Below, one piece after another: positions 4,976-34,845 of a DNA stretch of 39,401 nt. Position numbers and translations under genes: made by a program. The stretch comes from a virus. Position 1 is the first letter of the stretch; every line of letters begins with the position of its first letter. The notes under the pieces are model-generated. The model did not search any database and was not told where the DNA came from. It worked only from the letters and a program-made list of their open reading frames with translations. The DNA lies in UHGV virus genome UHGV-0067872, one strand, 5' to 3'.

Positions 4976-5060
4976 CTTTCTCCTGTTCTTTGTGCTGATT
5001 GAGCATTTTGTTCATCTGACTAATGAATTCTTCGTCTGACCAGTTATCTGTAAAACTCAT
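4953..5060 (-). CDS. Small acidic ORF (35 aa) in the kil position
   Basis: Hand translation MSFTDNWSDEEFISQMNKMLNQHKEQEKDDDSDSE; ATG overlaps the cIII-like stop; too short for certainty. Confidence 0.2.
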   Translation of the reverse strand: MSFTDNWSDEEFISQMNKMLNQHKEQEKDDDSDSE

Positions 5061-5227
5061 GGACGGCCTTGTTGTTTCAAAATATCCCAAAGCTTTTCGA
5101 GCAAGCTTTTCATTCTTGGTTGTTTAAAGTCTGCTCCGGTTAAAATATTTTTTCGTGAATGCTGTACCGATAAAATCGGGTTGAAAGGGCGAACCGATGC
5201 CGCCCCTGCAATAGCGAACTGTTGCAT
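5057..5227 (-). CDS. cIII: cIII-like protease inhibitor (56 aa)
   Basis: Hand translation MQQFAIAGAASVRPFNPILSVQHSRKNILTGADFKQPRMKSLLEKLWDILKQQGRP; shares MQ.AIAG and SLLE...DIL.Q.G with lambda CIII as I recall it; correct map position. Confidence 0.4.
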   Translation of the reverse strand: MQQFAIAGAASVRPFNPILSVQHSRKNILTGADFKQPRMKSLLEKLWDILKQQGRP

Positions 5228-7218: not shown

Positions 7219-7935
7219 TCAAACCAGCCTTAGTTTTGTCTCAATTGCAACGCCTATAATCTTGCAGTTTCCATTGATTGGCACGAGAGGCCATGCAGGA
7301 TTAAGTCCCTTGAGGTATTTATTTCCGCCGTCGATTATCAGCTTCTTGAATGTTGCTTCGTTAGAGTCAGAAAGTTTTGCTATGACCAAGCTGCCGTTGA
7401 TCGCCTCCCTTCCGGTATCGAAAAGAACGAATGTTCCCTCTGGAATGCTTAACCCAACCGGTGCCGTCATTGAATCACCTTCCACTTTAAGCCAAAACGC
7501 ATTACCTTGAATATGCGCGTCAGACTCAAGCCAAACATCTATGTCTTTAATGGTGTATGGTTCGCATGCTTCACACCACGAGCCAGCCTGGATACTGCTT
7601 AACACCGGATACCTCTTTCCTGCTCTGTATTCCCCTGCATACCTTACGTTGGCATCGCTCTTAAGGCTTTCTGCCTGTTCTGCAACCTTGGCAGCAATTG
7701 ACTGGCTAAAATCAGCAATTGAGACTTGCAACAATCGTGCAAAACCAGATGCAACCTCAACGTTTAGCGCGTTTCTGCCATTAAGATAATGCCCTACCGC
7801 TCCTTGGGTGATACCCAGTTCATCAGCGATTGAGTATTGGGTTATTCCCAATTCTTTCTTTTTTGACTCATACAAAGCCTTAAGCCGCTTAGCGTCTTCG
7901 AGCTGTTCTGTCGTCAGTGATTTTTTATTTTCCAT
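7219..7935 (-). CDS. cI: cI-type repressor (HTH + S24 LexA-like autopeptidase domain)
   Basis: N-terminus LTTEQLEDAKRLKALYESKKKELG resembles lambda cI; C-terminal domain with AGSWCEACEP and VEGDSM motifs of S24 peptidases; divergent from cro. Confidence 0.9.
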   Translation of the reverse strand: MENKKSLTTEQLEDAKRLKALYESKKKELGITQYSIADELGITQGAVGHYLNGRNALNVEVASGFARLLQVSIADFSQSIAAKVAEQAESLKSDANVRYAGEYRAGKRYPVLSSIQAGSWCEACEPYTIKDIDVWLESDAHIQGNAFWLKVEGDSMTAPVGLSIPEGTFVLFDTGREAINGSLVIAKLSDSNEATFKKLIIDGGNKYLKGLNPAWPLVPINGNCKIIGVAIETKLRLV

Positions 7936-7946
7936 AGCCTAATTCT

Positions 7947-8010
7947 AATAGCTAAGGTACTTAAACTAAAAATACCCTGAGTATTGATTGCTTTGAATAC
8001 CTGTAGTATT
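7947..8010. promoter_or_regulatory. OR operator cluster (three sites) with PRM/PR
   Basis: AATAC-N5-GTATT palindromes at 7971-7985 and 7996-8010 plus a degenerate copy at 7947-7961, about 25 bp apart. Confidence 0.55.
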
Positions 8011-8041
8011 CTTTGTTCATGGTTAATAACGGAGAGTGCAT

Positions 8042-8236
8042 ATGATTCGAATGACACTTGCCGATTACGCCAAAATCCATGGACAGGCTAAAGCAGCCAG
8101 TGACTTTGGTGTAATCCAGTGCGCTATCAGCAAGGCCATTCTGGCAGGCCGTAACATCATGGTTACGGTAAAGCCTGATGGCAGTGTGATTGGAGAGGAA
8201 GTTCGTCCTTTCCCAAGCAACAAGAAAAACAAATAG
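8042..8236 (+). CDS. cro: Cro-like repressor
   Basis: Track begins at GTG 8036; ATG 8042 has GGAG upstream; sequence parallels lambda Cro (DYA..GQ.K.A.D.GV.Q.AI.KAI.AGR...PFPSNKK). Confidence 0.7.
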
Positions 8237-8242
8237 TAACAC

Positions 8243-8287
8243 CGCTCTTTAACAGTCATGGTCATCATTCCCGCCGAAATGCGGGAA
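8243..8287 (+). promoter_or_regulatory. nutR (boxA CGCTCTTTA plus boxB hairpin TTCCCGC-CGAAAT-GCGGGAA)
   Basis: Read directly between cro and cII; hairpin identical to nutL. Confidence 0.55.
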
Positions 8288-8344
8288 TACAACGCGCATA
8301 AGTTGATGCGCATAACTTCTTATTTGTTAAGGAAATACTTACAT

Positions 8345-8638
8345 ATGGTTCGTGCAAACAAACGCAACGAGGCTCTACGAATAGAGAGTGCGTTGCTTAA
8401 CAAAATCGCAATGCTTGGAACTGAGAAGACAGCGGAAGCTGTGGGAGTTGATAAGTCGCAGATCAGCAGGTGGAAGAGGGATTGGATTCCAAAGTTCTCA
8501 ATGCTGCTTGCTGTTCTTGAATGGGGTGTCGTCGACGACGACATGGCTCGATTGGCACGACAAGTTGCTTCGATTCTCACCAATAAAAAACGCCCGGCGG
8601 CAACCGAGCGTTCTGATCAAATCCAGATGGAGTTCTGA
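8345..8638 (+). CDS. cII: cII transcriptional activator
   Basis: From ATG 8345 the protein MVRANKRNEALRIESALLNKIAMLGTEKTAEAVGVDKSQISRWKRDWIPKF... matches lambda CII as I remember it; the track ORF 8258.. is an upstream extension. Confidence 0.9.
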   Translation: MVRANKRNEALRIESALLNKIAMLGTEKTAEAVGVDKSQISRWKRDWIPKFSMLLAVLEWGVVDDDMARLARQVASILTNKKRPAATERSDQIQMEF

Positions 8639-8670
8639 GGTCATTACTGGATCAATCCACAGGAGTCATT

Positions 8671-9516
8671 ATGACAAATACAGCAAAAATACTCAACTTC
8701 GGCAGAGGTAACTTTGCCGAACAGGAGCTAAGAGTGGCTGATATCGATGATGGTTACACCAGATTCGCTAACGAGCTGCTGGAAGCTATCGCAAGTGCCG
8801 ATTTAACCGCTCGCCAGTTGAAAGTTATGCTGGCCTACGTCCGGAAAACATATGGCTTCAATAAGAAAACAGATCGAATAGCCGATGAGCAAATTGCTCA
8901 GTTAACAGGACTGTCAAGGCAGAATGTTAACAAGGCTAAAAAAGAACTGATTTCAATGAATTGCCTGTTTATGGATGGAAATAAAATCGGTGTAAACAGG
9001 GAGGTATCTGCGTGGCAATTCAGCAAGTGTCTCCAAGTTAGCAACTTTGTCTCGAAGTTAGAGACAAAAAATGTCTCCAAATTAGAGACACTCAATGTCT
9101 CGAAGTTAGAGACACACAAAAGACATTCTTTAAAGACAAAAGAAAATATTAATAAACCCCCTATATCCCCCAAAAAAGTTTCTCAGAAGTTCGACCCGCT
9201 AGAAACAGAGTTACCTGATTGGTTATCAGCAGAAACATGGTTGTCGTGGGTTACCTATCGCAAGGAGATAGGTAAGTCGATCAAGTCTAAGCAAAGTGTC
9301 ACTCAGGCTATCAACGTTCTAAGCAGAAGTCTGGAGAAGGGATATACACCTGAAGAAATTATAAACCAGAGCATCGCCAGTGGTTGGCAGGGGATTTTTG
9401 AGCCCAAGACTCCAAAGGGGAAACCTCAACCGAGGCCGCAGCATCGAGCTATGCAGGAAAACTTTGCCGCCAAAGATTACGGACAAACTGAAATGCCTTC
9501 ATGGGCGCAGGAGTGA
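8671..9516 (+). CDS. O: Replication initiator O
   Basis: N-terminus MTNTAKILNFGRGNFA as in lambda O; iterons embedded mid-gene. Confidence 0.85.
   Translation: MTNTAKILNFGRGNFAEQELRVADIDDGYTRFANELLEAIASADLTARQLKVMLAYVRKTYGFNKKTDRIADEQIAQLTGLSRQNVNKAKKELISMNCLFMDGNKIGVNREVSAWQFSKCLQVSNFVSKLETKNVSKLETLNVSKLETHKRHSLKTKENINKPPISPKKVSQKFDPLETELPDWLSAETWLSWVTYRKEIGKSIKSKQSVTQAINVLSRSLEKGYTPEEIINQSIASGWQGIFEPKTPKGKPQPRPQHRAMQENFAAKDYGQTEMPSWAQE
9028..9115 (+). repeat. Origin iterons: four copies of palindromic TGTCTC-N7-GAGACA, followed by an AT-rich tract
   Basis: Copies at about 9028, 9049, 9072 and 9097; AT-rich stretch 9130-9175; encoded peptide repeat VSKLET. Confidence 0.7.
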
Positions 9517-9518
9517 AT

Positions 9519-10412
9519 ATGAATACGACAAATGGTTACAACCTGGCACTGCAAAGGCAACTTGTAGACTCAAAAATCAATGACATTTCTGATCTGAAAC
9601 AGAAACTTGAGTTTAGCAAAATTGGATCAGCATCAGATGGAATGTCAGTTACCAGCACAGTGGAAGAGTGCGAGAAACACGGTAAATATACTTCCTATGA
9701 GAAATATCTGACCATCTCAGGAAAAAGAATTACTTCAAGTAAATCTGAGTGCCCACAGTGCCTTGAGGAGAAAATTCGTAAGAAAGAGATTGAACGTGAG
9801 CAGGCAGAACAAAGAGCAAGACAATCAAAAATTGAATACTTGTTGAATTCTCTCAATATTCCAGAGAGGTTCAAAAATTGCACTCTTCAGAATTATGAGC
9901 CTGTTAACGATGATGCAAAGCGAGTTCTTAAGGTATGCCAGGCATATGCCAGTAAGTGGCCTGAACGCCTTCAAAAAGGTGGCGGACTGGTCATGTGTGG
10001 TAAGCCTGGAACTGGAAAGAACCATCTTGCACTGGCTATCGCTAGGCACGCCATTATCGAGCATCAAAGCTCTGTGATATTTACCACTGCGTTGAAAATT
10101 GCCAGAGAGTACAAATCAACATGGTCTAAGGCCGCAACCAGAACTGAAGAAGAAGTCATTAGGCAATTTACGCATCCTGACTTGTTAATAATCGATGAGG
10201 TTGGCGTGCAGTTCGGCAGTGATGCTGAAAAGCTAATCATGTTCGAAATTATCAACACCAGATATGAATACATGAAGCCAACAATCCTGATTAGTAATCA
10301 GAGCAAAGATGAACTTTCGGCATTCATTGGTGAGCGTGTTATTGACAGAATGAATGATGGCGGCGGGTGCACTCTTGCGTTTACATGGGATAGTTACAGG
10401 AGCAGATCGTGA
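9519..10412 (+). CDS. DnaC/IstB-like AAA+ helicase loader
   Basis: Walker A VMCGKPGTGKNHLALAIA; ATG 9519 with GGAG upstream (track start 9501 is an extension). Confidence 0.85.
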   Translation: MNTTNGYNLALQRQLVDSKINDISDLKQKLEFSKIGSASDGMSVTSTVEECEKHGKYTSYEKYLTISGKRITSSKSECPQCLEEKIRKKEIEREQAEQRARQSKIEYLLNSLNIPERFKNCTLQNYEPVNDDAKRVLKVCQAYASKWPERLQKGGGLVMCGKPGTGKNHLALAIARHAIIEHQSSVIFTTALKIAREYKSTWSKAATRTEEEVIRQFTHPDLLIIDEVGVQFGSDAEKLIMFEIINTRYEYMKPTILISNQSKDELSAFIGERVIDRMNDGGGCTLAFTWDSYRSRS

Positions 10413-10699
10413 CTGGAAAAGAAATCATCCTGGAATATCTGAAAACTCATGAACAATTCTCCCCACATGAATTAGCACTGATCACAGGAATACCAAATAA
10501 CAGAATCGCTCAAGCAGCAAGGCATATGGTGAAACAAGGGCATTTGAGTGTTGTTGAGCGTAAGTGGAAGACGGTTATTTATGCAAAACGCAAAGTGAAG
10601 AAGGAGCCAATTAAAAGAAATCCAGATGGTACGGGGTGGGGATGTGCAAATCCAATGACGGCGTTTATTAATAGGGCGCTTATGGAGGTAAGGCAATGA
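10409..10699 (+). CDS. Hypothetical protein (96 aa)
   Basis: GTG start overlapping loader stop; no recognised domain. Confidence 0.4.
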   Translation: MTGKEIILEYLKTHEQFSPHELALITGIPNNRIAQAARHMVKQGHLSVVERKWKTVIYAKRKVKKEPIKRNPDGTGWGCANPMTAFINRALMEVRQ

Positions 10700-10771
10700 C
10701 CATCTACATCACTGAGCTAATAACAGGCCTGCTGGTAATCGCAGGCCTTTTTATTTGGGGGAGAGTAAATC

Positions 10772-10978
10772 GTGGCTGAGTTGATTTTCTCTGCATTGAG
10801 GCTTCTCGGTGCTCTGTGGATGGTGGCGACGTTCATTGTGGTTGCTGGCTGTTTTGTCCGGTTGGTAGGCGAAGGTAAAGACCTGGGGAATATGCTTTTA
10901 GGTAGCATTTTCCTGTGGGGGATTATCGGTGTTATGCCTGTCGCTGTAGCAAAAATGGCGTGGCGTTTTGTGAGTTGA
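10772..10978 (+). CDS. Small hydrophobic protein (68 aa)
   Basis: Two hydrophobic helices; GTG start; weak. Confidence 0.35.
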   Translation: MAELIFSALRLLGALWMVATFIVVAGCFVRLVGEGKDLGNMLLGSIFLWGIIGVMPVAVAKMAWRFVS

Positions 10979-10995
10979 ACTGAGGGTAAGTATCG

Positions 10996-11307
10996 ATGGA
11001 CGAATCAAGAAAGCAGTTTGAAGAATGGTTTGAAAATTACACCGGATGTGATCCTAAAAATAAAATATACGCCAATATGGTTGAGATGTATTGGCAAGCG
11101 TGGCAGGCATCGCGAGCAGCTATTGAACTGGATATCGACTGGCCCGAATCGAATGACGACTTTTGGAAAGATGGTGAAGAAGGTGCTTATGCGATGGGGC
11201 ATGAGGATGGGAAGGACAAAACGGTAATTGCAGTAATGAAAGCTATCAGAGCCGCTGGAATTAAAGAGAAGAATTTCGATGAAGCAAACAATCTTCCTCC
11301 GAACTAA
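10996..11307 (+). CDS. Hypothetical nin-region protein (103 aa)
   Basis: ORF upstream of ninB; acidic; unknown. Confidence 0.45.
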   Translation: MDESRKQFEEWFENYTGCDPKNKIYANMVEMYWQAWQASRAAIELDIDWPESNDDFWKDGEEGAYAMGHEDGKDKTVIAVMKAIRAAGIKEKNFDEANNLPPN

Positions 11308-11689
11308 GCAACAACAGCAAGCTGCAATAAATGCCATCCTCGCAACACCACTCGATAAAGACAAGCCAGTCACCATCCGCATTACTGACTACAAGCGCAA
11401 CCTTGACCAGAACGCAAAATTTCACGCGATGGTCGCAGATATCGCTAGGCAAGTTAAGTGGCGCGATAAATGGTTAAAACCGGAACAATGGAAGGTTTTG
11501 TTGATCAGCGGTCATGCAGTGGCTACAAAGCAGGAAGCTGATGTTTTGCCCGGCCTTGAAGGCGAATACGTCAACATTCGCGAAAGTAGCGCGCAGATGA
11601 GTGTGAAGCGTATGGCAAGTCTGATTGAGTACACGACAGCATGGGCTATTGGTCAGGGCGTCAGATTTACCGACAGGAGGTACGAATGA
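11279..11689 (+). CDS. ninB: NinB (Orf) recombination mediator
   Basis: Motifs [22 protein letters not shown] and order before ninE/ninF match lambda NinB as I recall it. Confidence 0.8.
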
Positions 11690-11862
11690 GACGACAGCGA
11701 CGAAGTATCACCGACATAATCTGTGAAAACTGCAAATACCTTCCAACGAAACGCTCCAGAAATAAACGCAAGCCAATCCCGAAAGAATCTGACGTAAAAA
11801 CCTTCAACTACACGGCTCACCTGTGGGATATCCGGTGGCTAAGACATCGTGCGAGGAAATGA
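11686..11862 (+). CDS. ninE: NinE-like small protein
   Basis: Internal ATG at 11686 (ATGA overlap with ninB) gives [30 protein letters not shown]..., matching my memory of lambda NinE. Confidence 0.5.
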
Positions 11863-12224
11863 CAATGGATTATTCACAGTTAAGTGATTTTGAAATTAAC
11901 GTGGCGGTATTCGAAGCCATTCATAACGGATCACCGGATTACAAAGAAGGTGAGAATGGCGCGATGGTGTTTATCTCATTTGAGGGAGACATTGTAAACG
12001 GAGACGCAGTTGAAGTAGAAGTTGAGCGCGGATCATTTAACCCATGCGTAAACCCAGCAGACGCATGGCCGATTATTGAAAAATACAGGATTAGCATTAT
12101 CAATCTCGATGAAGACGAGTGGGGTGCACGCGGTGCGGCCTACTGTAAATCTAAGCGAGCTATACATGAAAATCCCCTCCGCGCCGCCATGATTGTCTTT
12201 CTCATGATGCAGAGAATCCAATAA
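11859..12224 (+). CDS. Hypothetical nin-region protein (possibly DUF2591/NinX-like)
   Basis: ATG 11859 overlaps preceding stop; family assignment tentative. Confidence 0.45.
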
Positions 12225-12403
12225 TGCTTAGCCCATCCCAATCCATTCAATACCAGAAAGAAAGCGTCGAGCGGGCTTTAACGTGCGCTAACTGCGGTCA
12301 GAAGCTGCATGTGCTGGAAGTTCACGTGTGCGCCGATTGCTGCGCAGAACTGATGAGCGATCCGAATAGCTCAATGTACGAGGAAGAAGACGATGGTGAT
12401 TAG
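12224..12403 (+). CDS. ninF: NinF-like zinc-ribbon protein (59 aa), absent from the ORF track
   Basis: Hand translation [59 protein letters not shown]; CxxC...CxxCC motif. Confidence 0.55.
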   Translation: MLSPSQSIQYQKESVERALTCANCGQKLHVLEVHVCADCCAELMSDPNSSMYEEEDDGD

Positions 12404-12785
12404 CCGATACGGACAAATAACGTTTAAACATTTTCAAGACAATCCAACATGGGCTGCTGCGGCTGGATATGACTTTAATTATTTTGATTGTCTGTCAGTC
12501 GCATGTATTGCAACTACCAATGTTGCTAACAACATAATCGATGAATTCTTGGATTTTCCAGACTATCAGGTCAGAGAGTTGCCTGCATTTTTTGTGAAAG
12601 TATCTGTTGCTACAGCTCTGTTATTTATTTTGTTATTCGCATATCCATTGCTTGCCGTATTTGTTTATGTGAGATGCAAACACTCACAAAAGGAATACAG
12701 CGGAGAGCATACCGATATTACCAGCCAAAATATGCGAGTGTGGTTGAGGAGATGCCAAGAGAAATGGGGGAGACGTCATGGCTAA
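12393..12785 (+). CDS. AT-rich membrane-anchored hypothetical protein (130 aa)
   Basis: Coupled to both neighbours by overlaps; one strong hydrophobic helix (ATALLFILLFAYPLLAVFVYV); AT-rich relative to flanking nin genes. Confidence 0.45.
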   Translation: MVISRYGQITFKHFQDNPTWAAAAGYDFNYFDCLSVACIATTNVANNIIDEFLDFPDYQVRELPAFFVKVSVATALLFILLFAYPLLAVFVYVRCKHSQKEYSGEHTDITSQNMRVWLRRCQEKWGRRHG

Positions 12786-13068
12786 CCTACGCAAAGAAGC
12801 GCGCGGCAGAGAATGCCAGGTACGTATTTACGGCGTATGCAATGGTAATCCTGAAACTACAGTTCTGGCACATTACCGGATGGCTGGAATTTGCGGAACG
12901 GGAATGAAACCTGACGACCTGATCGGCGCATGGGCTTGTAGTGACTGCCACGCGGAGATCGACCGACGCACAAGGATTCTCGACAACAAAGACGCCAGAC
13001 TTTACCACCTCGAAGGCGTGATAAGGACGCAGGCGATACTGCTGAAGGAGGGGAAGATTAAGCCATGA
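12778..13068 (+). CDS. YbcO-like (DUF1364) putative nuclease
   Basis: MANLRKEARGRECQVRIYGVCNGNPETTVLAH...CSDCHAEIDRR resembles E. coli DLP12 YbcO as I recall it. Confidence 0.65.
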   Translation: MANLRKEARGRECQVRIYGVCNGNPETTVLAHYRMAGICGTGMKPDDLIGAWACSDCHAEIDRRTRILDNKDARLYHLEGVIRTQAILLKEGKIKP

Positions 13069-13427
13069 ACGAATATCAGTTTGTGCTTCCATACCCGCCG
13101 TCGGTGAATACCTACTGGCGAAGACGGGGAAGCCAATACTACATCAGCGATAAAGGCCAGAAATACCGAAAAGACGTTCAGCAAATCATCCGCCAACTTA
13201 AGTTAGACATTTTCACCAAATCACGACTCCGCATCAAAGTCATCGCAGACGTTCCAGACTCCCGCCGCCGCGACCTCGATAACATCCTGAAAGGTTTACT
13301 CGACTCCCTTATCCACGCCGGATTTGCGGAAGACGACGAGCAATTCGATGACATTCGCGTAATTCGTGGTGTGAAAGTACCAGGCGGACGGCTTGGAATA
13401 AAAATCACCGAACTGGAGAACGTATGA
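13065..13427 (+). CDS. rusA: RusA Holliday-junction resolvase
   Basis: RusA-like motifs (RRRDLDNILKGLLDSL, GGRLGIKITE) and size. Confidence 0.85.
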   Translation: MNEYQFVLPYPPSVNTYWRRRGSQYYISDKGQKYRKDVQQIIRQLKLDIFTKSRLRIKVIADVPDSRRRDLDNILKGLLDSLIHAGFAEDDEQFDDIRVIRGVKVPGGRLGIKITELENV

Positions 13428-13612
13428 ACGCCACAATTCAAACGATACCAGAGCTTCTTATCCAGACACGAGGCAATCAGACCGAAGTGGCGAGGATGCT
13501 TTCCTGCGCAAGAGGAACAGTGCTCAAGTACAACCGAGACAGCAAAGGCGAGCGTCACGTAATAGTTAACGGCGTCCTGATGGTCAAACAGGGCAAGAGG
13601 GGAAGACCATGA
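13424..13612 (+). CDS. ninH: NinH-like protein
   Basis: TIPELLIQTRGNQTEVARMLSCARGTVLKY parallels lambda NinH. Confidence 0.65.
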   Translation: MNATIQTIPELLIQTRGNQTEVARMLSCARGTVLKYNRDSKGERHVIVNGVLMVKQGKRGRP

Positions 13613-14232
13613 GACTCGAAAGCGTAGCTAAATTTCATTCGCCAAAAAGCCCGATGATGAGCGACTCACCACGGGCTACGGCTTCTGACTCTCTTTCCGG
13701 TACTGATGTGATGGCTGCTATGGGGATGGCGCAATCACAAGCCGGATTCGGAATGGCTGCATTCTGTGGTAAGCACGAACTCAGCCAGAATGACAAACAA
13801 AAGGCTATCAACTATCTGATGCAATTTGCACACAAGGTATCGGGGAAATACCGTGGTGTGGCAAAGCTCGAAGGAAATACTAAGGCAAAGGTGCTGCAAG
13901 TGCTCGCAACATTCGCTTATGCGGATTATTGCCGTAGTGCCGCGACACCGGGCGCAAGATGCAGAGATTGCCACGGTACTGGCCGGGCCGTTGATATTGC
14001 CAAAACAGAGCAGTGGGGGAGAGTTGTCGAGAAAGAGTGCGGAAGATGCAAAGGCGTCGGTTATTCAAGAATGCCAGCAAGCGCTGCATATCGCGCTGTG
14101 ACGATGCTAGTACCAAACCTTACCCAACCCACCTGGTCACGCACTGTTAAGCCGCTGTATGACGCTCTGGTGGTGCAATGCCACAAAGAAGAGTCAATCG
14201 CAGACAGCATTTTGAACGCGGTCACACGTTAG
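13609..14232 (+). CDS. Q: Late antiterminator Q
   Basis: 207-aa protein MRLESVAKFHSPKSPMMSDSPRATASD... matches lambda Q as I remember it. Confidence 0.9.
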   Translation: MRLESVAKFHSPKSPMMSDSPRATASDSLSGTDVMAAMGMAQSQAGFGMAAFCGKHELSQNDKQKAINYLMQFAHKVSGKYRGVAKLEGNTKAKVLQVLATFAYADYCRSAATPGARCRDCHGTGRAVDIAKTEQWGRVVEKECGRCKGVGYSRMPASAAYRAVTMLVPNLTQPTWSRTVKPLYDALVVQCHKEESIADSILNAVTR

Positions 14233-14274
14233 CAGCATGATTGCCACGGATGGCAACATATTAACGGCATAATA

Positions 14275-14317
14275 TTGACTTTTTGAATAAAGTTGGGTAA
14301 ATTTGACCCAAGAATGG
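14275..14317 (+). promoter_or_regulatory. PR' late promoter with qut element
   Basis: -35 TTGACT (14275-14280), 17-bp spacer, -10 TAAATT (14298-14303), then AAGAAT pause-inducing -10-like element. Confidence 0.6.
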
Positions 14318-14995
14318 CAGATTTATATCCGTTCACATTCTTTCAGCTTTTACCCACCTCATCTTTAAGTTCTAAGCGCACTGACATGCGCATCATAAAC
14401 TCGAGAGCACATAGGAATAGAGCCTGAGAAATATCGCTTTTGGCGACTTCTCTCGTGGTGATATTTCTATGTCAGCAGGCTCTAATATCTATGTGGTTCG
14501 CCTATGTTAAAACGTGAAGATGCATTGAGACTTTTTAATTACAATCCAGATACTGGAATTCTTACATGGAAGAATCCACCTCGGTCCTCTAGATTTATCT
14601 ATGGCGCTGTTGTTGGCTATAAAACAAATGGATATCTGCAGGTAAAACTTTATGGAATGCGGCTATATGTCCATAGAATTGCATGGCTGATGGTTTACAA
14701 TGATTGGCCAACCGATGTTATTGACCATATTAATGGTGATAGGTCTGATAACCGGATAGCCAATCTTCGTGTTGTTACTAACACTCAAAACTCATGGAAC
14801 AGCAAGATGAGGAAAAACAATTCATCTGGTGTGAAGGGGGTGACTTTTAATTCTGCTGCAAACAAGTGGGTTGGAAGAATTAGAGTTAATGGTAAAAGGA
14901 TTCATGTAGGGTGTTTTGACGATATCGAGGAGGCTAGAAAGGCAATGGAAAATGCCAGGATAAAATATCATGGTGAATTCTCCAGTATGGGATAG
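14318..14995 (+). mobile_element. Freestanding homing-endonuclease cassette inserted into the PR'/6S leader
   Basis: AT-rich block between the PR' initial transcribed region and the 6S-like sequence resuming at 14996; ATGG microhomology at both junctions; contains the HNH ORF ending exactly at the right junction. Confidence 0.5.
14504..14995 (+). CDS. HNH endonuclease with AP2 DNA-binding domain (homing-endonuclease-like)
   Basis: HNH motif HINGDRSDNRIANLRVVTNTQNSWN; AP2-like GVKGVTFNSAANKWVGRIRVNGKRIHVGCFDDIEEARKAMENARIKYHGEF. Confidence 0.85.
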   Translation: MLKREDALRLFNYNPDTGILTWKNPPRSSRFIYGAVVGYKTNGYLQVKLYGMRLYVHRIAWLMVYNDWPTDVIDHINGDRSDNRIANLRVVTNTQNSWNSKMRKNNSSGVKGVTFNSAANKWVGRIRVNGKRIHVGCFDDIEEARKAMENARIKYHGEFSSMG

Positions 14996-15125
14996 ATGGG
15001 TTAATTCGCTCGTTGTGGTAGTGAGATAAAAAGAGGCGGCGCTTACTACCGATTCCGCCTAGTTGGTCACTTCGACGTATCGTCTGGAACTCCAACCATC
15101 GCGGGCTGAGAGGTCTGCAAAATGC

Positions 15126-15186
15126 AATCCCGAAACAGTTCGCAGGTAATAGTTAGAGCCTGCATAACGGTTTCGGGATTTTTTAT
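15126..15186 (+). terminator. tR'-like rho-independent terminator (end of 6S-type RNA)
   Basis: Long hairpin AATCCCGAAAC...GTTTCGGGATT with nested GCAGG/CCTGC stem, followed by T6. Confidence 0.7.
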
Positions 15187-15210
15187 ATCTGTGCAACAGG
15201 TAAGAGCATT

Positions 15211-15609
15211 CTCCCTTATGGGGCTTGGCTTAAATGCACTGAGTGCTCTTATCGTTGTGGCAGCACAACGATAGTTTTCGTCAGAGTTGGCGACTTTGCG
15301 GGTTTTTAGAAACTGACCACAAAGATAAATGCAAACGATGATTTGATGTTGATGGCGGCCTAAGAAACCAAAATCACGGGGTCTTCCGACTCCCCGCTAC
15401 CAAATTCGGCGCACTGGCCCGGTGTGATTAATAATGGGCACCCATTCAAACGTACCCTCGGCAGGTTCGATTCCTGACTAGACCCAGATGGCGACGGGGA
15501 GGGTCCAATTGAGTGGGTAACAACGGGCATGTCGCCTTAGTAAATCCCTCAAGGGTGCGACGCATAGACCGGTACTAGCGTCGCCGTTAGCTCCACGAAA
15601 CGGAGCGCA
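15211..15609. other. ORF-free, GC-rich, hairpin-dense segment bounded by a 17-bp direct repeat
   Basis: Direct repeats CAACAGGTAAGAGCATT (15194-15210) and CAACAGGTAAGAGTATT (15610-15626); no ORF of 60 aa or more except one implausible minus-strand frame; perfect 10-bp-stem hairpin at 15250-15273. Confidence 0.3.
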
Positions 15610-16017
15610 CAACAGGTAAGAGTATTTGTAGAGTTCGACTCTCTACCGTGGGCTTTTTCCCGCGATGCGAGCCATAAATGCTCTTTCCGTTGTGCTGAAT
15701 TAAGCGAATGCCGGAAGCAGAACCGGATCACCAAATGCGTACAGGCGTCATCGCCGCCCAGCAACAGCACAACCCAAACTGAGCCGTAGCCACTGGTTAT
15801 CCTGAACTCATCAGTGATAGTTACGCTGCGGCCTTCTACACATGACCTTCGTGAAAGCGGGTGGCAAGAAGTTGCGCTAACAACCTCCTGCCGTTTTGCC
15901 CGTGCATATCGGTCACGAACAAATCTGATTACTAAACACAGTAGCCTGGATTTGTTCTATCAGTAATCGACCTTATTCCTAATTAAATAGAGCAAATCCC
16001 CTTATTGGGGGTAAGAC

Positions 16018-16341
16018 ATGAAGATGCCAGAAAAACATGACCTGTTAGCCGCCATTCTCGCGGCAAAGGAACAAGGCATCGGGGCAATCCTTGCGTTTGC
16101 AATGGCGTACCTTCGCGGCAGATATAATGGCGGTGCGTTTACAAAAACAGTAATCGACGCAACGATGTGCGCCATTATCGCCTGGTTCATTCGTGACCTT
16201 CTCGACTTCGCCGGACTAAGTAGCAATCTCGCTTATATAACGAGCGTGTTCATCGGCTACATCGGTACTGACTCGATTGGTTCGCTTATCAAACGCTTCG
16301 CTGCTAAAAAAGCCGGAGTAGAAGATGGTGGAAATCAATAA
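16018..16341 (+). CDS. S: Holin S (dual-start S107/S105)
   Basis: [34 protein letters not shown]... matches lambda S; tandem starts ATG-AAG-ATG. Confidence 0.95.
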
Positions 16342-16801
16342 TCAACGTAAGGCGTTCCTCGATATGCTGGCGTGGTCAGAGGGAACAGATAACGGACGAC
16401 AGAAAACCAGAAATCATGGTTATGACGTCATTGTTGGCGGAGAGCTATTCACTGATTACTCCGATCACCCTCGCAAACTTGTCACGCTAAACCCCAAACT
16501 CAAATCAACAGCAGCCGGACGTTACCAGCTTCTTTCCCGTTGGTGGGATGCCTATCGCAAGCAGCTCGGACTGAAAGACTTCTCTCCGAAAAGCCAGGAC
16601 GCTGTGGCACTGCAACAGATTAAAGAGCGTGGCGCTTTACCGATGATTGATCGCGGTGATATCCGTCAGGCAATTGACCGTTGCAGCAATATCTGGGCTT
16701 CACTGCCTGGCGCTGGTTATGGTCAGTTCGAGCATAAGGCTGACAGCCTGATTGCAAAATTCAAAGAAGCAGGCGGAACGGTCAGAGAGATTGAGGTATG
16801 A
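16325..16801 (+). CDS. R: Endolysin R (lytic transglycosylase)
   Basis: [26 protein letters not shown]... matches lambda R. Confidence 0.95.
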
Positions 16802-17235
16802 GCAGAGTCACCGCGATTATCTCCGCTCTGATTATCTGCATCGTCGTCTGTCTGTCATGGGCTGTTAATCATTACCGTGATAACGCCATCGCCTACAAAG
16901 ACCAGCGCGATAAAGCCACATCCATCATCGCTGACATGCAGAAGCGTCAACGTGATGTAGCAGAACTCGACGCCAGATACACAAAGGAGCTTGCTGATGC
17001 TAACGCGACTATCGAAAGTCTCCGTGCTGATGTTTCTGCTGGTCGTAAGCGCCTGCAAGTCTCCGCAACCTGTGCAAAGTCAACGACCGGAGCCAGCAGC
17101 ATGGGCGATGGAGAAAGCCCAAGACTTACAGCAGATGCTGAACTCAATTATTACCGTCTCAGAAGTGGAATCGACAGGATAACCGCGCAGGTTAACTACC
17201 TGCAGGAGTACATCAGGACGCAATGCCTTCGATGA
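16798..17235 (+). CDS. Rz: Spanin inner-membrane subunit Rz
   Basis: N-terminus [31 protein letters not shown] as lambda Rz; C-terminal half divergent. Confidence 0.85.
16991..17182 (+). CDS. Rz1: Spanin outer-membrane lipoprotein Rz1, nested in +1 frame within Rz
   Basis: Signal peptide plus lipobox-like LVVSAC, Pro-rich mature part; embedded like lambda Rz1. Confidence 0.65.
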
Positions 17236-17410
17236 TAGCGATAATTTTACTCATCATCCTTCACATCTGGCTCTGTAGACAGGGTGGTGATCACTTCTGG
17301 AGTAAATCCAGATTAAACATCTCATTGCTGATGCTTGATATTGAGCATCTGGCGCGCAGTAAGGGGCTGCGTTGAGATAAGAGCCAGTCATTACAAACAC
17401 CAGGATTTAG

Positions 17411-17435
17411 CCTCGCATTCGCGGGGTTTTTTATT
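17411..17435 (+). terminator. Putative rho-independent terminator after the lysis cassette
   Basis: CCTCGC-ATTC-GCGGGG followed by TTTTTTATT. Confidence 0.5.
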
Positions 17436-17456
17436 CCCAACTCCATAGGTAATTTT

Positions 17457-17936
17457 ATGACCCAGCATATTGGCGTAAAACTGATTAACGCCTTTCCGAT
17501 GACGAGACAGGCATATAACGATTTTCGTGGCTGGCAGCTTCCTGCCGGAGAAAACGGCGAGGACGAAGGCTATCTGGTTGAATATCTGGATGGCGGAAAA
17601 CCTAACACCGATCGCTTTGATGGCTACGTTAGCTGGAGTCCAAAAGAAGTATTCGAAAAGGCTTATCGTCCGGTATCAGGACTAAGTTTCGGCCTTGCCA
17701 TGGAAGCGTTAAAACAGGGCAAAAGTTTGCAGCGGGCAGGATGGAATGGGAAAGACCAGTTTGTTTATCTCGTGAAAGGGGAAAAATTAGCGTCTGCGTT
17801 GGGTTATGGCTTTGGCGAATATGTTGGCGAGCCAACTTTCAATGACACGCTTGTATTGAAAAACTCACAGAACCGCCTTGCTACATGGGTTCCATCCATT
17901 GGCGACCTGATGGCTGAAGACTGGCAAATCATTTAA
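17457..17936 (+). CDS. Hypothetical protein with C-terminal DUF2829/Tad2-like domain
   Basis: C-terminal half has AMEALKQGKSLQRAGWNGK...FVYLV...WVPSIGDLMAEDWQII, matching my recollection of the DUF2829 consensus; N-terminal 75 aa unassigned. Confidence 0.5.
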   Translation: MTQHIGVKLINAFPMTRQAYNDFRGWQLPAGENGEDEGYLVEYLDGGKPNTDRFDGYVSWSPKEVFEKAYRPVSGLSFGLAMEALKQGKSLQRAGWNGKDQFVYLVKGEKLASALGYGFGEYVGEPTFNDTLVLKNSQNRLATWVPSIGDLMAEDWQII

Positions 17937-18169
17937 CCATGTAGTCATTACAAAGCCCATCAACGGGTGGGCTTGATAATGAAACCGGAATTTATTCTAG
18001 GCAACCAGTTACGGCAGTACCACGAAACAACCCAAGCCAGTAAGTGGGGAAATAACACTGGCAGCCACTGAAAGATGAACCTCCTGCCTTATGGCAAAAA
18101 AGATTCTTTGTGGTGGCGGACTGATGGAAAGACATCCTAATCAAGCAACCACTCCACAGGGTCATAATT

Positions 18170-18550
18170 ATGAACGACCAGCAAATCGAAAAAGAAATCG
18201 TTGAGAAAGGCAAAACGGCACCGCGAATCACCCCGCAGCACATCGAAGACGTGATTAAAAGCGAGCATTACTTTACTGCTTATGATGGACGAAATGGTGC
18301 CATTTCCAGCAACGAATATTGTGGCAGGGAAAAACCAGAAGAAGGCGATCGTGATTTATCACCATTGAAGTTGCTCACTTTCTGCGTACTGGTGCTGAAG
18401 AATGGCTTCACCGTCACCGGAGAGAGTGCCTGTGCAAGCCCGGAAAACTTTGATGCAGAAATTGGTCGGAAGATTGCCCGGCAAAATGCTGTAAACAAAA
18501 TCTGGATGCTCGAAGGTTACTTGCTGAAGCAGAAGCTAAGCGAACAGTAG
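18170..18550 (+). CDS. Conserved phage protein, possibly Gp49-like
   Basis: 126-aa ORF; motif GESACASPENFDAEIGRKIARQNA recalled from phage Gp49-like proteins; tentative. Confidence 0.4.
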   Translation: MNDQQIEKEIVEKGKTAPRITPQHIEDVIKSEHYFTAYDGRNGAISSNEYCGREKPEEGDRDLSPLKLLTFCVLVLKNGFTVTGESACASPENFDAEIGRKIARQNAVNKIWMLEGYLLKQKLSEQ

Positions 18551-18606
18551 TTATTACAAAAGCCATTCCCTACAGAGTGGCTTTGATAATGGCTTATACC
18601 CTACAC

Positions 18607-18633
18607 GGGATATCTTAACTGATATCCCTTTTA
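18607..18633 (+). terminator. Putative terminator hairpin
   Basis: Perfect inverted repeat GGGATATC-TTAACT-GATATCCC followed by TTTT. Confidence 0.5.
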
Positions 18634-18653
18634 ACGGATAAACGGAGCCAACA

Positions 18654-18896
18654 ATGGCAGAGATTATTCCCATGACTGAAGAACAGAAATTCCAGTTAGA
18701 GATTTACAAACTGGTCATGAACCAGAACGCAGCCGCAGAAGAAGCATTTCAGTTCATTGGCACTGACGAGCTGAAGCTTGAGCTATTCAAAATTCACTTC
18801 CAGTCAGGTGGCGCTAATTCAGATATCACGACGCGCACTATCGAAGCGGTGCGTAAATCTAAGGAAGCGTTAGACCTGTTCACTACCGGAGCATAA
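18654..18896 (+). CDS. Hypothetical protein (80 aa) preceding terminase
   Basis: ORF with SD GGAG; position like small ORFs before TerS in P22-like phages. Confidence 0.45.
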   Translation: MAEIIPMTEEQKFQLEIYKLVMNQNAAAEEAFQFIGTDELKLELFKIHFQSGGANSDITTRTIEAVRKSKEALDLFTTGA

Positions 18897-18898
18897 AC

Positions 18899-19339
18899 AT
18901 GGCGCGCCCAACAAAGTATCAAGAGGCGTATGCCGAACAGGCACGCAAACTGTGCTTGCTGGGCTACACCGATGCAGAGCTTGCTGATTTCTTCGAAGTC
19001 AGTGAGTCAACTATTAACAAGTGGAAGCTTGATTATCCTAAGTTTTCGGAGTCCATAAAAAAGGGTAAGGCCGTCGCTGATGCAGAAGTTAGTGATCGTC
19101 TTTATCAACGCGCTATGGGCTTCGTGGCTCCAGACATCGATATTCGTGTTATTGAAAACAGAATTGTCGAAACTCCGCTTGAGAAGTATTACCCGCCTGA
19201 TACAACAGCTGCCATCTTCTGGCTTAAGAACCGACAGAAGGATAAATGGCGCGACAAGGTTGATCACGAGCTAACAGGCAAAGACGGCGGCGCAATTCAG
19301 ATTGAAACATCACCGATGAGCACTCTATTCGGAAAATGA
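18899..19339 (+). CDS. Terminase small subunit (Sf6 gp1-like)
   Basis: C-terminus ELTGKDGGAIQIETSPMSTLFGK matches my recollection of Sf6 small terminase; N-terminal HTH-like segment. Confidence 0.75.
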   Translation: MARPTKYQEAYAEQARKLCLLGYTDAELADFFEVSESTINKWKLDYPKFSESIKKGKAVADAEVSDRLYQRAMGFVAPDIDIRVIENRIVETPLEKYYPPDTTAAIFWLKNRQKDKWRDKVDHELTGKDGGAIQIETSPMSTLFGK

Positions 19340-20751
19340 CCACGATTAATCCTATCTTTGAACCGTTCATTGAGGCGCATCGCTACAAAGTCGCCAAAGG
19401 CGGTCGAGGTAGCGGTAAGTCATGGGCAATTGCGAGGCTGCTTGTTGAAGCGGCGCGTCGGCAGCCTGTGCGCATACTTTGCGCTCGTGAGCTGCAAAAC
19501 AGTATCAGCGATTCGGTAATCCGGCTGCTTGAAGATACCATCGAGCGTGAAGGGTATTCGGCTGAGTTTGAAATTCAGCGTTCCATGATTCGTCATCTCG
19601 GAACGAATGCTGAGTTCATGTTCTACGGCATCAAAAACAACCCGACGAAGATTAAATCGCTAGAAGGTATTGATATCTGCTGGGTGGAGGAAGCGGAAGC
19701 GGTAACGAAGGAATCATGGGATATCCTGATACCAACCATCCGCAAGCCGTTTTCCGAAATATGGGTGAGCTTTAACCCTAAGAACATCCTCGACGATACC
19801 TATCAGCGATTCGTTGTAAATCCTCCCGATGATATTTGTCTGCTGACGGTGAACTACACCGACAACCCGCACTTTCCTGAAGTTCTCCGTCTGGAGATGG
19901 AAGAGTGTAAACGCAGAAATCCGACACTGTATCGTCACATCTGGCTTGGTGAGCCAGTGAGCGCAAGTGATATGGCAATCATCAAACGTGAATGGCTTGA
20001 AGCCGCAACCGATGCGCACAAGAAACTCGGATGGAAGGCGAAAGGCGCTGTTGTCTCTGCGCATGACCCGTCAGATACAGGACCGGATGCTAAAGGTTAT
20101 GCATCGCGCCACGGTTCGGTAGTTAAGCGCATTGCCGAAGGCCTGCTGATGGACATCAATGAAGGTGCTGACTGGGCAACTTCGCTGGCGATTGAAGACG
20201 GCTCTGACCACTACCTGTGGGATGGTGATGGTGTTGGTGCCGGGCTACGCAGACAGACAACGGAAGCGTTCTCCGGCAAGAAAATCACCGCCACGATGTT
20301 CAAGGGCAGCGAATCGCCATTCGATGAAGATGCGCCATATCAGGCCGGAGCATGGGCTGATGAAGTCGTACAGGGCGACAATGTTCGCACTATTGGCGAT
20401 GTATTCCGCAATAAGCGAGCGCAATTCTATTACGCGCTGGCTGACAGGCTGTATCTGACATATCGGGCGGTTGTTCACGGTGAGTATGCAGACCCAGACG
20501 ACATGCTGAGTTTCGACAAAGAAGCGATAGGCGAGAAGATGCTGGAGAAGCTGTTTGCAGAACTGACGCAGATTCAGCGCAAATTCAATAACAACGGGAA
20601 GCTGGAGCTTATGACTAAGGTCGAAATGAAACAGAAGCTCGGGATTCCATCTCCTAACCTGGCTGATGCGCTGATGATGTGTATGCATTGCCCGGAGTCG
20701 GCTGCGCAACCCGACTATTCCAGTTACTCAATTCCTTGTGGTGTAGGTTGA
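19336..20751 (+). CDS. Terminase large subunit
   Basis: Walker A KGGRGSGKS near N-terminus; size 471 aa; follows TerS with 4-nt overlap. Confidence 0.9.
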   Translation: MTTINPIFEPFIEAHRYKVAKGGRGSGKSWAIARLLVEAARRQPVRILCARELQNSISDSVIRLLEDTIEREGYSAEFEIQRSMIRHLGTNAEFMFYGIKNNPTKIKSLEGIDICWVEEAEAVTKESWDILIPTIRKPFSEIWVSFNPKNILDDTYQRFVVNPPDDICLLTVNYTDNPHFPEVLRLEMEECKRRNPTLYRHIWLGEPVSASDMAIIKREWLEAATDAHKKLGWKAKGAVVSAHDPSDTGPDAKGYASRHGSVVKRIAEGLLMDINEGADWATSLAIEDGSDHYLWDGDGVGAGLRRQTTEAFSGKKITATMFKGSESPFDEDAPYQAGAWADEVVQGDNVRTIGDVFRNKRAQFYYALADRLYLTYRAVVHGEYADPDDMLSFDKEAIGEKMLEKLFAELTQIQRKFNNNGKLELMTKVEMKQKLGIPSPNLADALMMCMHCPESAAQPDYSSYSIPCGVG

Positions 20752-33218: not shown

Positions 33219-33860
33219 TCAAAGCAACGGGATTTCAAGGTAAACTGCGGTTGCCAAAATACTAACATCTTCATTTCTAACAAGAATATTAGGATACATT
33301 GGGTTTAGGGATACTAGGTTTGTCTCTATTTCACCAATGTAAACCTGTTTGAAGCTCAATATTTGCTCTTTATCCAATGATGCTATTACATAATCTTTGC
33401 TTTTAGCTTTTACTAGAGGGCTGAACGTGACAACCGATCCTCTGGGAAAGCTAATACCTGAACTTGTAGTCATAGCTTCACCTTCAATAGTCAATGCAAA
33501 TGCAGAGTCACCAACATTGTATATTGCCGGATGAAATCTAGACGATGAATGTTCACCTGTGTTTAGATAATGCATAACTTCATCTAGTTTGAGGATTGGT
33601 ATTTGCTTTACCAGAACGTCAGGCATGACGTTTTTTGTTCCCGGACCCTGACCTTCACCTAGAGCTAACCACTCAGCTGTAGTACCTAATGCGTTGGCTA
33701 ATGCCTGCAATACCCGAAGCCGTGGTTTAGCCTCACCACCCTCGTATGCAGCTATTTGACGTTGAACAACACCAGCTAATTTTGACAACTGCGCCTGCGT
33801 CATACCCCTGGACTGTCTTGCCAGAGATACTCTTGATGGGAATTGATCGTCAAAATTCAT
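33219..33860 (-). CDS. Second cI/LexA-type repressor (HTH_XRE + S24 peptidase domain)
   Basis: HTH segment MTQAQLSKLAGVVQRQIAAYEGG; C-terminal S24-like domain (TIEGEAMT...); divergent from Arc-like gene. Confidence 0.8.
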   Translation of the reverse strand: MNFDDQFPSRVSLARQSRGMTQAQLSKLAGVVQRQIAAYEGGEAKPRLRVLQALANALGTTAEWLALGEGQGPGTKNVMPDVLVKQIPILKLDEVMHYLNTGEHSSSRFHPAIYNVGDSAFALTIEGEAMTTSSGISFPRGSVVTFSPLVKAKSKDYVIASLDKEQILSFKQVYIGEIETNLVSLNPMYPNILVRNEDVSILATAVYLEIPLL

Positions 33861-33959: not shown

Positions 33960-34133
33960 ATGACTGAAAAGATATCTTCCATCAAGCCGCGTCAGGTTCG
34001 TTTTACAGAAAAGGTTGATTCACATATCCGCGAATCAGCAAAAAGATGCCATAGGTCAATTCAGGCAGAGATAGCTTATCGAATGGAGTTATTGATGAAA
34101 CTTGAGGCAAAGGGCGATGTTGTCATCCAATAA
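33960..34133 (+). CDS. Arc/CopG-like ribbon-helix-helix repressor (57 aa), absent from the ORF track
   Basis: Hand translation MTEKISSIKPRQVRFTEKVDSHIRESAKRCHRSIQAEIAYRMELLMKLEAKGDVVIQ; AGGAG SD; beta-strand then two helices. Confidence 0.5.
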   Translation: MTEKISSIKPRQVRFTEKVDSHIRESAKRCHRSIQAEIAYRMELLMKLEAKGDVVIQ

Positions 34134-34206
34134 AAATAGTGAAGCCCGGCAGTGCGCGAACACAAACCGGGCCTCTATGTCAGTAACCGTATACAAGGAA
34201 ACTAAC

Positions 34207-34845
34207 ATGAACATTGTAGCAAAATCAGATTATAACTTCCAAGGATTCACTTTTAACCCTGTAACAGAGGGTGGGTCTATCTGGTTTACCTCCACCGAAC
34301 TAGCTAAGGCTCTCGGCTATAAAAAAACTGATGCCATCAGCCAAATTTATGCCCGTAATGCTGACGAGTTTTCCGACTCAATGTCATTGACCCTCAATAT
34401 GAAGGTCAACGGGATAAACAATAGCTTACGTAACAAATCGGTCAGAGTTTACTCGCTCCGAGGCGCTCACTTGGTGGCGATGTTTGCTTCTACGCCCAAG
34501 GCCAAAGAGTTCCGCCGCTGGGTGCTGGATATTTTGGATCGGCAGGCAGAATGCTCACCGATTGCAAAACAGTTTACTGATGAAGAACTGGTTAATCTCT
34601 GCTACTTACAATTGTGGATGGAGAAGAGTCAACAAATGTGCAAACACATCTACCCAGGAATGAAGCAAATTGGTTCTGAGCTTTCAGGAAGAATTTACGA
34701 TATTGCATATGAGACTCGCTATATGTCAGAAGAAACCAAGAAATCACTTCTTCGTGAAATGAAGAATCTTGATACCAACAATTTTGTCGTAAAGAACGCT
34801 CAGCCAATGCTGACAAAACTGCGCGGCGAGGAATGGATTCATTGA
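34207..34845 (+). CDS. Antirepressor with Bro-N domain
   Basis: FQGFTFNPVTEGGSIWFTSTELAKALGY...VYSLRGAHLVAMFASTPKAKEFRRWVLDIL is a Bro-N signature; ATG 34207 with AAGGA SD. Confidence 0.7.
   Translation: MNIVAKSDYNFQGFTFNPVTEGGSIWFTSTELAKALGYKKTDAISQIYARNADEFSDSMSLTLNMKVNGINNSLRNKSVRVYSLRGAHLVAMFASTPKAKEFRRWVLDILDRQAECSPIAKQFTDEELVNLCYLQLWMEKSQQMCKHIYPGMKQIGSELSGRIYDIAYETRYMSEETKKSLLREMKNLDTNNFVVKNAQPMLTKLRGEEWIH

Follow-up and report, generated by a model that had tools for sequence, protein, structure and literature searches.

The nin region of lambdoid phages draws on a pool of 30-50 genes, about 10 per phage, which are non-essential and have been assembled by recombination at gene boundaries (PMC5630979). 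The whole region can be deleted and is dispensable for plaque formation (PMC10695390), and in the statement of Kröger and Hobom (1982) that is cited in the same source it is a "chain of interlinked genes". In lambda, ninF (42269-42439) is followed directly by ninG (42429-43043). In HK620, the order is ninF, roi, hkbD (a gene of the ybcO type), rus, ninH and Q. Here we describe a 130-amino-acid (aa) open reading frame (ORF) that lies between ninF and a ybcO-like gene in the UHGV virus genome UHGV-0067872, a stretch of 39,401 nucleotides (nt) that we refer to as the window. The 130-aa ORF forms an optional cassette of the nin region that can be swapped and is exchanged horizontally. It is an ordinary optional nin-region gene and a case of ordinary nin mosaicism, here for a predicted membrane protein. 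A first-pass annotation, made from the letters of the window, had already placed the ORF between these two neighbours, which Pfam confirms, had set it against the lambda gene order, which it gave correctly, and had taken it for an optional, horizontally exchanged gene, as the variable slot contents of other prophages bear out. The parts of the cassette are these:

12376-12395, + strand: left junction, the conserved ninF 3' end (…GAGGAAGAAGACG) followed by ATG, from the junction alignment
12393-12785, + strand: coding sequence of the 130-aa protein, PHROG 2638 family, with ATG start and stop codon included; identical to RefSeq WP_000237094.1
12396-12777, + strand: cassette-specific DNA, 382 nt, missing from relatives with other slot contents, from the slot query matches and the junction alignment
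12417-12497, + strand: N-terminal motif ITFKHFxDxPxWAAAAGYDFNYxDCxS, codons 9-35, from an alignment of 12 sequences
12588-12674, + strand: single predicted transmembrane (TM) helix, codons 66-94, with a conserved Pro (YP/WP…FW), from hydropathy and an AlphaFold helix at residues 60-101
12675-12782, + strand: basic C-terminal tail, codons 95-130, with a predicted helix at 108-129 and 8 Lys or Arg residues (K+R); the least constrained part
12778-12785, + strand: right junction octamer ATGGCTAA, where the ybcO-like gene starts and where, in another frame, the 130-aa ORF has its TAA stop

The window phage is an HK620/mEpX1/Kapi1-like phage of the P22 type (Lederbergvirus), with 95-97% identity over about half of positions 8000-20000 and a P22-type tailspike head-binding domain at 35974-38025. 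HK620 and mEpX1 hold roi in the same slot, so the 130-aa ORF replaces the roi of its closest relatives; the first-pass view of an insertion into the ninF-ninG junction gives way to replacement in a recurrent swap slot. When a 1-kb query across the slot is compared to 5,426 complete E. coli genomes, 1,820 of them match, and just 13 do so over at least 80% of the query length. The matches from other E. coli prophages end at window positions ~12396-12402 (query 297-303) and resume at 12778 (query 679). In place of the cassette, other prophages have a KilAC/Roi gene (L013), a 70-aa soluble ORF (L012, L015), a NUMOD4-HNH gene (H63), or an empty slot in which ninF is followed by ninG as in lambda (L014). 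Where the 130-aa ORF does fill the slot, the next gene is either ybcO (L001) or ninG (L002).

Both junctions are built from sequences that the different slot contents have in common. On the left, the ninF 3' end (…GACGATG) that precedes the 130-aa ORF also precedes roi, the 70-aa ORF or ninG elsewhere, and the sequences diverge immediately past the ATG. A GAGG Shine-Dalgarno sequence stands 9 nt upstream of that ATG, and the junction alignment finds the Shine-Dalgarno sequence within the common ninF 3' end, …GAGGAAGAAGACGATG. On the right, the octamer ATGGCTAA opens both ybcO (MAN…) and ninG (MAK…), and its TAA ends whichever gene is upstream (L002 3386, L014 1494, L012 999). The ybcO-type and ninG genes fall into one BLAST cluster in the neighbour analysis, which suggests a common N-terminal region together with the common recombination junction. 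The two junctions (…GACGATG and ATGGCTAA) are defined to the base, with at least five alternative contents swapped between ninF and a ninG/ybcO-type gene, and they preserve the ribosome-binding sites and the stop/start overlaps. In the window, the ninF stop TAG at 12401-12403 gives an 11-nt overlap with the start of the 130-aa ORF, and the ybcO-like ATG at 12778 gives an 8-nt overlap with its stop TAA at 12783-12785. The first-pass annotation had read these overlaps as a coupling of the ORF to both neighbours. They are real, but not special to it: overlapping start/stop junctions are used by every slot occupant and by ninF-ninG, and belong to the slot and, more widely, to the nin region.

The Klebsiella phage phiKp_30 (L006 ~5043-5084) has a homolog of the ORF and, behind it, 13 codons left over from the beginning of a ybcO gene (MANLRKEARGGRR*), then a Roi-like gene and a complete ybcO. 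Such an arrangement is what remains when recombination at the ATGGCTAA junction stacks one cassette on another.

The closest counterpart of the 130-aa ORF is roi itself, as found in HK022 and HK620. The two have the same slot (from ninF to the HK97-gp66/ybcO-type gene), strand, operon, junction sequences and overlapping start and stop codons, and roi is likewise dispensable and present in a subset of phages only. They differ in what they encode, as Roi is soluble, binds DNA, contains a KilAC domain and is unrelated in sequence to the predicted membrane protein described here, and in phiKp_30 the two kinds of gene are both present, in tandem. By position, the 130-aa ORF belongs to the nin gene pool: it has the replication genes on one side and Q on the other, shares their strand and is part of the chain of overlapping genes. 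It is also restricted to a subset of phages, being rare and having alternatives in its slot. We infer that the gene itself is dispensable.

The gene is found in few genomes and in very different contexts. Among the complete E. coli genomes there are 37 near-identical chromosomal copies and 4 diverged plasmid copies; conservation across most lambdoid nin regions, which would have spoken against a horizontally acquired moron, is not seen. It occurs in 16 of 50,697 phage records and at four loci in 185,579 species-representative genomes, and IMG/VR has 138 confirmed relatives. Orthologs at 48-57% identity hold the nin-region position in Buttiauxella, Enterobacter and metagenomic lambdoid phages, where they mostly adjoin NinF and a NinG/YbcO gene and sometimes lie upstream of NinF. 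More distant members are found in the accessory block of the P1-like phage-plasmids SJ46 and RCS47, among the early genes of Yersinia phage P840, close to those for exonuclease and Dam, in the replication module of Proteus Gorganvirus phages (with helicase, exonuclease, nuclease and primase), and in a small early-gene block of the lytic ~100-kb Alteromonas AD45 podoviruses. One further member (L009) lies near RdgC, Lar and Dam genes. Across 41 loci, no partner gene is common to all; the only conserved neighbours are those of nin-region synteny (NinF, NinG/YbcO), and nothing is shared with the non-lambdoid contexts.

The ORF is not an orphan but a member of PHROG 2638, a small and already catalogued phage family of uncharacterised function. 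The PHROG 2638 hidden Markov model is the sole family matched (E=4.7e-55, ORF residues 9-127 against profile positions 2-120 of 120), and all 40 aligned homologs match it and no other family. The identical RefSeq entry, annotated as "hypothetical protein", is on 374 contigs from E. coli, Salmonella and others. Members of the family include hypothetical proteins of Klebsiella phage phiKp_30, Salmonella phage SJ46 and Escherichia phage RCS47, and proteins of Yersinia phage vB_YenS-P840 and Proteus phage PM-CJR. The ORF has the size, N-terminal motif, single TM helix and basic tail of the family, with no differing feature. Some members carry annotations that are clearly mistaken, such as "conotoxin" in vB_YenS-P840 (L003 2998-3357) and "ribonucleotide reductase large subunit" in the Proteus phages Isfahan and 2207-N35 (Proteus records H13, H14, H16).

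The N-terminal motif is the signature of the family. In the alignment of 12 sequences, which are otherwise just 31-57% identical to the window protein, 13 positions are invariant: T10, H13, F14, P18, A21, A24, G25, Y26, F28, N29, D32, C33 and S35. The most distant members retain only F14, P18, A21, G25, Y26 and D32. The motif is followed by a variable helix, a (V/I)RELP motif, the TM helix and the basic tail, which in closer relatives has a conserved N113-W117-C121-W125 stripe. Pfam (E<=0.1) and NCBIfam scans of the ORF identify no family, and in Pfam the 40 family members have chance TM-type matches only (LapA_dom, Adeno_E3_CR2, ATP-synt_C, DUF3169). PADLOC-DB has no defence-protein match for the ORF, and one distant homolog has weak TM-only matches (E~0.005) to CAS-VI-B accessory membrane proteins. 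Against PDB sequences, the best match of a profile search has E=0.3, with nothing informative, and a comparison to BFVD and a fold library detects no fold similarity. Neither the accession nor the motif nor the PHROG number turned up in a literature search, and the preprint of a phage accessory-gene screen (bioRxiv 10.1101/2023.04.06.535777) does not mention a comparable protein.

Sequence comparison identifies the 130-aa ORF as a genuine gene under purifying selection. A word-indexed search finds 12 homolog clusters, and an exhaustive profile search of 1.84 billion representative proteins finds 44 clusters at E<=0.001, nearly all of them single-domain proteins of 100-135 aa. The architecture is constant across clusters at 20-57% identity and across many phage types. 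The profile search finds no case of the N-terminal domain fused to a larger protein; in the long hits (P0041, P0051, P0052), the match is limited to the TM or tail region. The ratio of nonsynonymous to synonymous substitution rates (dN/dS) is 0.075 between two lambdoid-prophage orthologs (Buttiauxella L007 and metagenome L011). In comparison with the window allele, synonymous sites have reached saturation (proportion of synonymous differences, pS, 0.78) and the nonsynonymous proportion (pN) is 0.28. Constraint is concentrated in the N-terminal domain and the TM helix, and the C-terminal tail is the least constrained part (pN 0.40). Amongst 25 near-identical copies, amino-acid polymorphism is almost all in the tail, and there is none in residues 9-56. 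Twenty-two of these copies are intact and three have premature stops, all in the tail (Q112* in L026 and L031, C121* in L037), with the N-terminal domain and the TM helix left intact; either the tail is dispensable or those prophages are decaying. In one E. coli assembly, the gene is split into two partial ORFs (P0004 and P0009). Disruption in close relatives, which had been proposed as evidence against an acquired moron, thus does occur in some of them, and these truncated or interrupted copies fit a dispensable gene.

The protein has one hydrophobic stretch at residues ~66-94 with a Kyte-Doolittle 19-residue maximum of 2.61, in agreement with the single strong helix of the first-pass annotation. 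The N-terminal 65 residues are acidic (net -5) and the C-terminal 36 residues are basic (8 K+R, net +4). AlphaFold2 with 9 sequences gives a full-length model with a mean predicted local distance difference test score (pLDDT) of 80.8, which includes a short β-hairpin (2-9), two short helices (11-23), a helix (30-53), a long helix (60-101) and a last helix (108-129). In the 40 members, the C-terminal flank of the TM helix has on average 4.4 K+R and the N-terminal flank 2.0, with more on the C-terminal side in 35 of the 40. Because of this charge bias, the tail is predicted to be cytoplasmic and the N-terminal domain external. We rejected a re-entrant hairpin with both ends in the cytoplasm for the window allele, in which just 8-9 hydrophobic residues come after the conserved Pro.

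The genes around the cassette, all on the same strand, are the following:

8671-9516, + strand: O
9501-10412, + strand: DnaC-like gene
11279-11689, + strand: NinB, from Pfam
within 11641-11862, + strand: NinE, from Pfam
11823-12224, + strand: NinX, from Pfam
12224-12403, + strand: ninF, the upstream neighbour, a zinc-ribbon protein (Pfam PF05810, E=3.4e-13; phrog_672)
12778-13068, + strand: ybcO-like/DUF1364 putative nuclease, the downstream neighbour, of the HK620 HkbD/HK97 gp66 type (PF07102, E=7.6e-44)
13065-13427, + strand: RusA, from Pfam
13424-13612, + strand: NinH, from Pfam
13609-14232, + strand: Q, from Pfam

The ribosome-binding site of the ybcO-like gene, GGAG at 12769-12772, is inside the last codons of the 130-aa ORF. 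We rejected an overlapping + strand ORF at 12674-12907 as a real gene; its 3' part would vanish where ninG replaces ybcO. An Rfam scan of positions 11000-15500 finds no RNA family. We find no sigma-70-like promoter or intrinsic terminator on the + strand from 11720 to 14275, and because the 130-aa gene has no transcription signals of its own, its product is most likely made with the delayed-early nin genes, as the first-pass annotation had it.

From these results, we can propose what the protein may do. Following the lambda paradigm, the gene would be transcribed from PR by read-through after antitermination, and its translation would be coupled in a chain with that of ninF. The protein is probably present in lytic development only, since the gene has no promoter of its own and its relatives are found among the early genes of unrelated phages, both temperate and lytic. 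It would insert in the cytoplasmic membrane with its basic tail inside, and the conserved N-terminal domain probably docks on a conserved component of the host inner membrane or envelope. The case for a conserved host target is that the motif is near-invariant from Escherichia to Yersinia and Proteus, that the tail is relaxed and that there is no phage partner; the membrane anchor is what points to the inner membrane or envelope. As no partner gene is conserved, the protein probably acts alone on that target. The likeliest effect would be takeover of, or competition at, the envelope, by blocking the entry of a secondary phage or a host membrane machine. Judged from the sequence and taken as a whole class, we give such a role an even chance, and no single mechanism within the class rises above being unlikely.

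Several observations weigh against this proposal. The N-terminal domain (residues 1-64, 12393-12584) has a pLDDT of ~82 inside the full-length model and of 56.5 when modelled alone, which may mean either that it needs the long helices, a partner or an oligomer to fold, or that the full-length model is over-compact. The protein has no signal peptide, and its N-terminal domain has an invariant Cys and a His, which are more usual in the cytoplasm; these features oppose the topology with the N terminus out and the C terminus in, which is a charge-based prediction. The timing of expression and the translational coupling are likewise read from the DNA. And the gene adjoins a NinG/YbcO-type nuclease in 17 of the 41 loci, an adjacency that may reflect a connection with DNA metabolism and not just synteny.

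Phages are known to use proteins of this general kind. T4 Imm and Sp and SPO1 gp56 are early small membrane proteins that exclude secondary infection or block host machines. The likeness to the 130-aa protein is a functional analogy (small, early, one or two membrane helices, non-essential), and the ORF has no sequence or fold similarity to any Pfam, PDB or BFVD entry. In particular, it is not a member of the superinfection-exclusion or immunity families in Pfam (T4 Imm, SieB and similar; no family at E<=0.1). Nor does its location fit a holin, as the lysis cassette (16018-17235) is downstream of Q and the ORF belongs to the early operon, ahead of Q.

A stronger version of the envelope proposal is that PHROG 2638 is a new class of lytic-cycle inner-membrane effectors in which the invariant HFxDxPxWAAAAGYDFNxxDCxS domain binds one conserved machine of Gammaproteobacteria, in the inner membrane or the periplasm. 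We consider this version unlikely as it stands. If true, the target could be a DNA-entry route, the divisome or a transporter, such that competing phages are shut out or the envelope is reprogrammed, and the gene would have been acquired independently by P22-like phages, lambda-like phages, P1-like phages, Gorganvirus and large Alteromonas podoviruses. In any case, PHROG 2638 stands out as a small family, found in phages of very different kinds, in which the N-terminal motif is unusually invariant. If that motif does bind a conserved host membrane target, the protein could be a compact tool or probe for the target, and could reveal a new mechanism of exclusion or takeover.

Amongst the alternatives, the likeliest is a counter-defence factor, or a trigger or effector of abortive infection, that acts on a membrane-bound component of host immunity. 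In screens of phage accessory proteins, many of the small ones alter barrier defences or set off cell death (bioRxiv 10.1101/2023.04.06.535777). An accessory gene that is rare, swaps fast and sits in a hot spot is also what is typically seen in an arms race, and the window phage carries a Tad2-like, candidate anti-Thoeris gene at 17457-17936. On the other hand, the ORF has no similarity to known anti-defence or defence proteins in Pfam, NCBIfam or PADLOC, and a motif that is near-invariant from Escherichia to Yersinia suggests that the target is a housekeeping component that is conserved, not an immune system that varies. We regard this alternative as rather improbable.

Another alternative is a membrane tether for phage DNA transactions, in which the basic tail would hold DNA, or a protein of replication or recombination, at the membrane by binding it. 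The model here is phi29 p16.7, an early membrane-anchored DNA-binding protein of 130 aa with an N-terminal TM helix and a C-terminal DNA-binding domain. By analogy, the 130-aa ORF has the same length, predicted early expression, an anchor plus a charged domain, and a place among replication genes. It differs in that its TM helix (66-94) comes after a 60-residue conserved domain and is followed by a short, poorly conserved tail. Replication, recombination or nuclease genes are neighbours in every context (NinB, NinG/YbcO and RusA in the window), and the conserved stripe of the tail in closer relatives would also agree with a tether. Phage early regions, however, consist largely of such genes, which makes adjacency a weak argument, and none of the partners is conserved throughout. 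Conservation is lowest in the tail, which is truncated in three of the 25 close copies and is short and unrelated in distant members, and a basic tail is expected anyway by the positive-inside rule. The ORF has no Pfam match to p16.7 or to any DNA-binding family. A role in DNA recombination is less likely than envelope takeover or competition, and for the tether itself we see only a slim chance.

The first-pass annotation had suggested a moron, and a strict moron or lysogenic-conversion gene, expressed from the prophage for instance in superinfection exclusion like P22 SieA or HK97 gp15, we likewise hold to be a long shot. The morons of lambdoid phages that Juhala et al. described in 2000 are reportedly transcribed autonomously, each from its own promoter to its own terminator, and in many cases in the prophage state. 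The 130-aa ORF is, like them, an extra gene of deviating composition between genes that are adjacent elsewhere; unlike them, it has no such signals and is fused into a chain of overlapping genes. Small membrane proteins are a common type of prophage exclusion factor, the gene is found mostly in E. coli and Salmonella prophages, and its GC content is, as first noted, lower than that of its neighbours. The ORF has a GC fraction of 0.399 and a GC fraction at third codon positions (GC3) of 0.366, where the flanking nin genes have GC/GC3 values of 0.455/0.455 (NinX), 0.511/0.583 (NinF), 0.529/0.557 (YbcO) and 0.490/0.554 (RusA). Since GC3 differs (0.366 vs 0.455-0.583), and since third-position GC is independent of amino-acid content, the gene differs from them in compositional history. 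Although real, the dip is not an extreme one: the GC of the ORF is just at the 9.6th percentile among all 393-nt windows of the phage, and several other accessory stretches are as AT-rich or more.

In place of a promoter and a terminator of its own, the ORF has coding overlaps on both sides, and these tie it to its neighbours inside the PR operon, which is repressed in a lysogen. Family members are present in lytic Alteromonas podoviruses and in Proteus Gorganvirus phages, and PADLOC has no match. Without its own promoter and terminator, the ORF falls outside the strict definition of a moron, and the occurrence of relatives in lytic phages makes a lysogenic-conversion gene unlikely.

That the ORF is a chance or decaying reading frame without function has next to no probability, even if some copies are split or have premature stops and the nin region is dispensable (PMC10695390), as it is already contradicted by the selection analysis (dN/dS 0.075), by a length and architecture kept at 20-57% identity across many phage types, by the invariant motif and by the 22 of 25 close copies that are intact.

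Other features of the phage lie outside the slot. At the start of the nin region, a strong terminator-like hairpin (10725-10748) is in the position of tR2, and right after it there is a very hydrophobic 68-aa ORF (10772-10978, + strand) with no Pfam or NCBIfam match, which is a second small membrane-protein candidate. Alone between Q and the lysis genes (16018 onward), a gene at 14504-14995 (+ strand, GC 0.39) codes for a 163-aa homing-endonuclease-like protein with HNH_3 and AP2 domains. The 159-aa ORF at 17457-17936 (+ strand), just past the lysis cassette, has a Tad2-like (Thoeris anti-defense 2-like, PF11195) domain with E=6.4e-22, which makes it a candidate anti-Thoeris gene. In addition to the CI-like repressor at 7219-7935 (- strand), the phage has a second LexA/CI-type repressor of 213 aa with HTH_3 and Peptidase_S24 domains at 33219-33860 (- strand). 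A Bro-N/P22_AR_C antirepressor gene at 34102-34845 (+ strand) faces this second repressor, in an immI-like region with a cleavable repressor.
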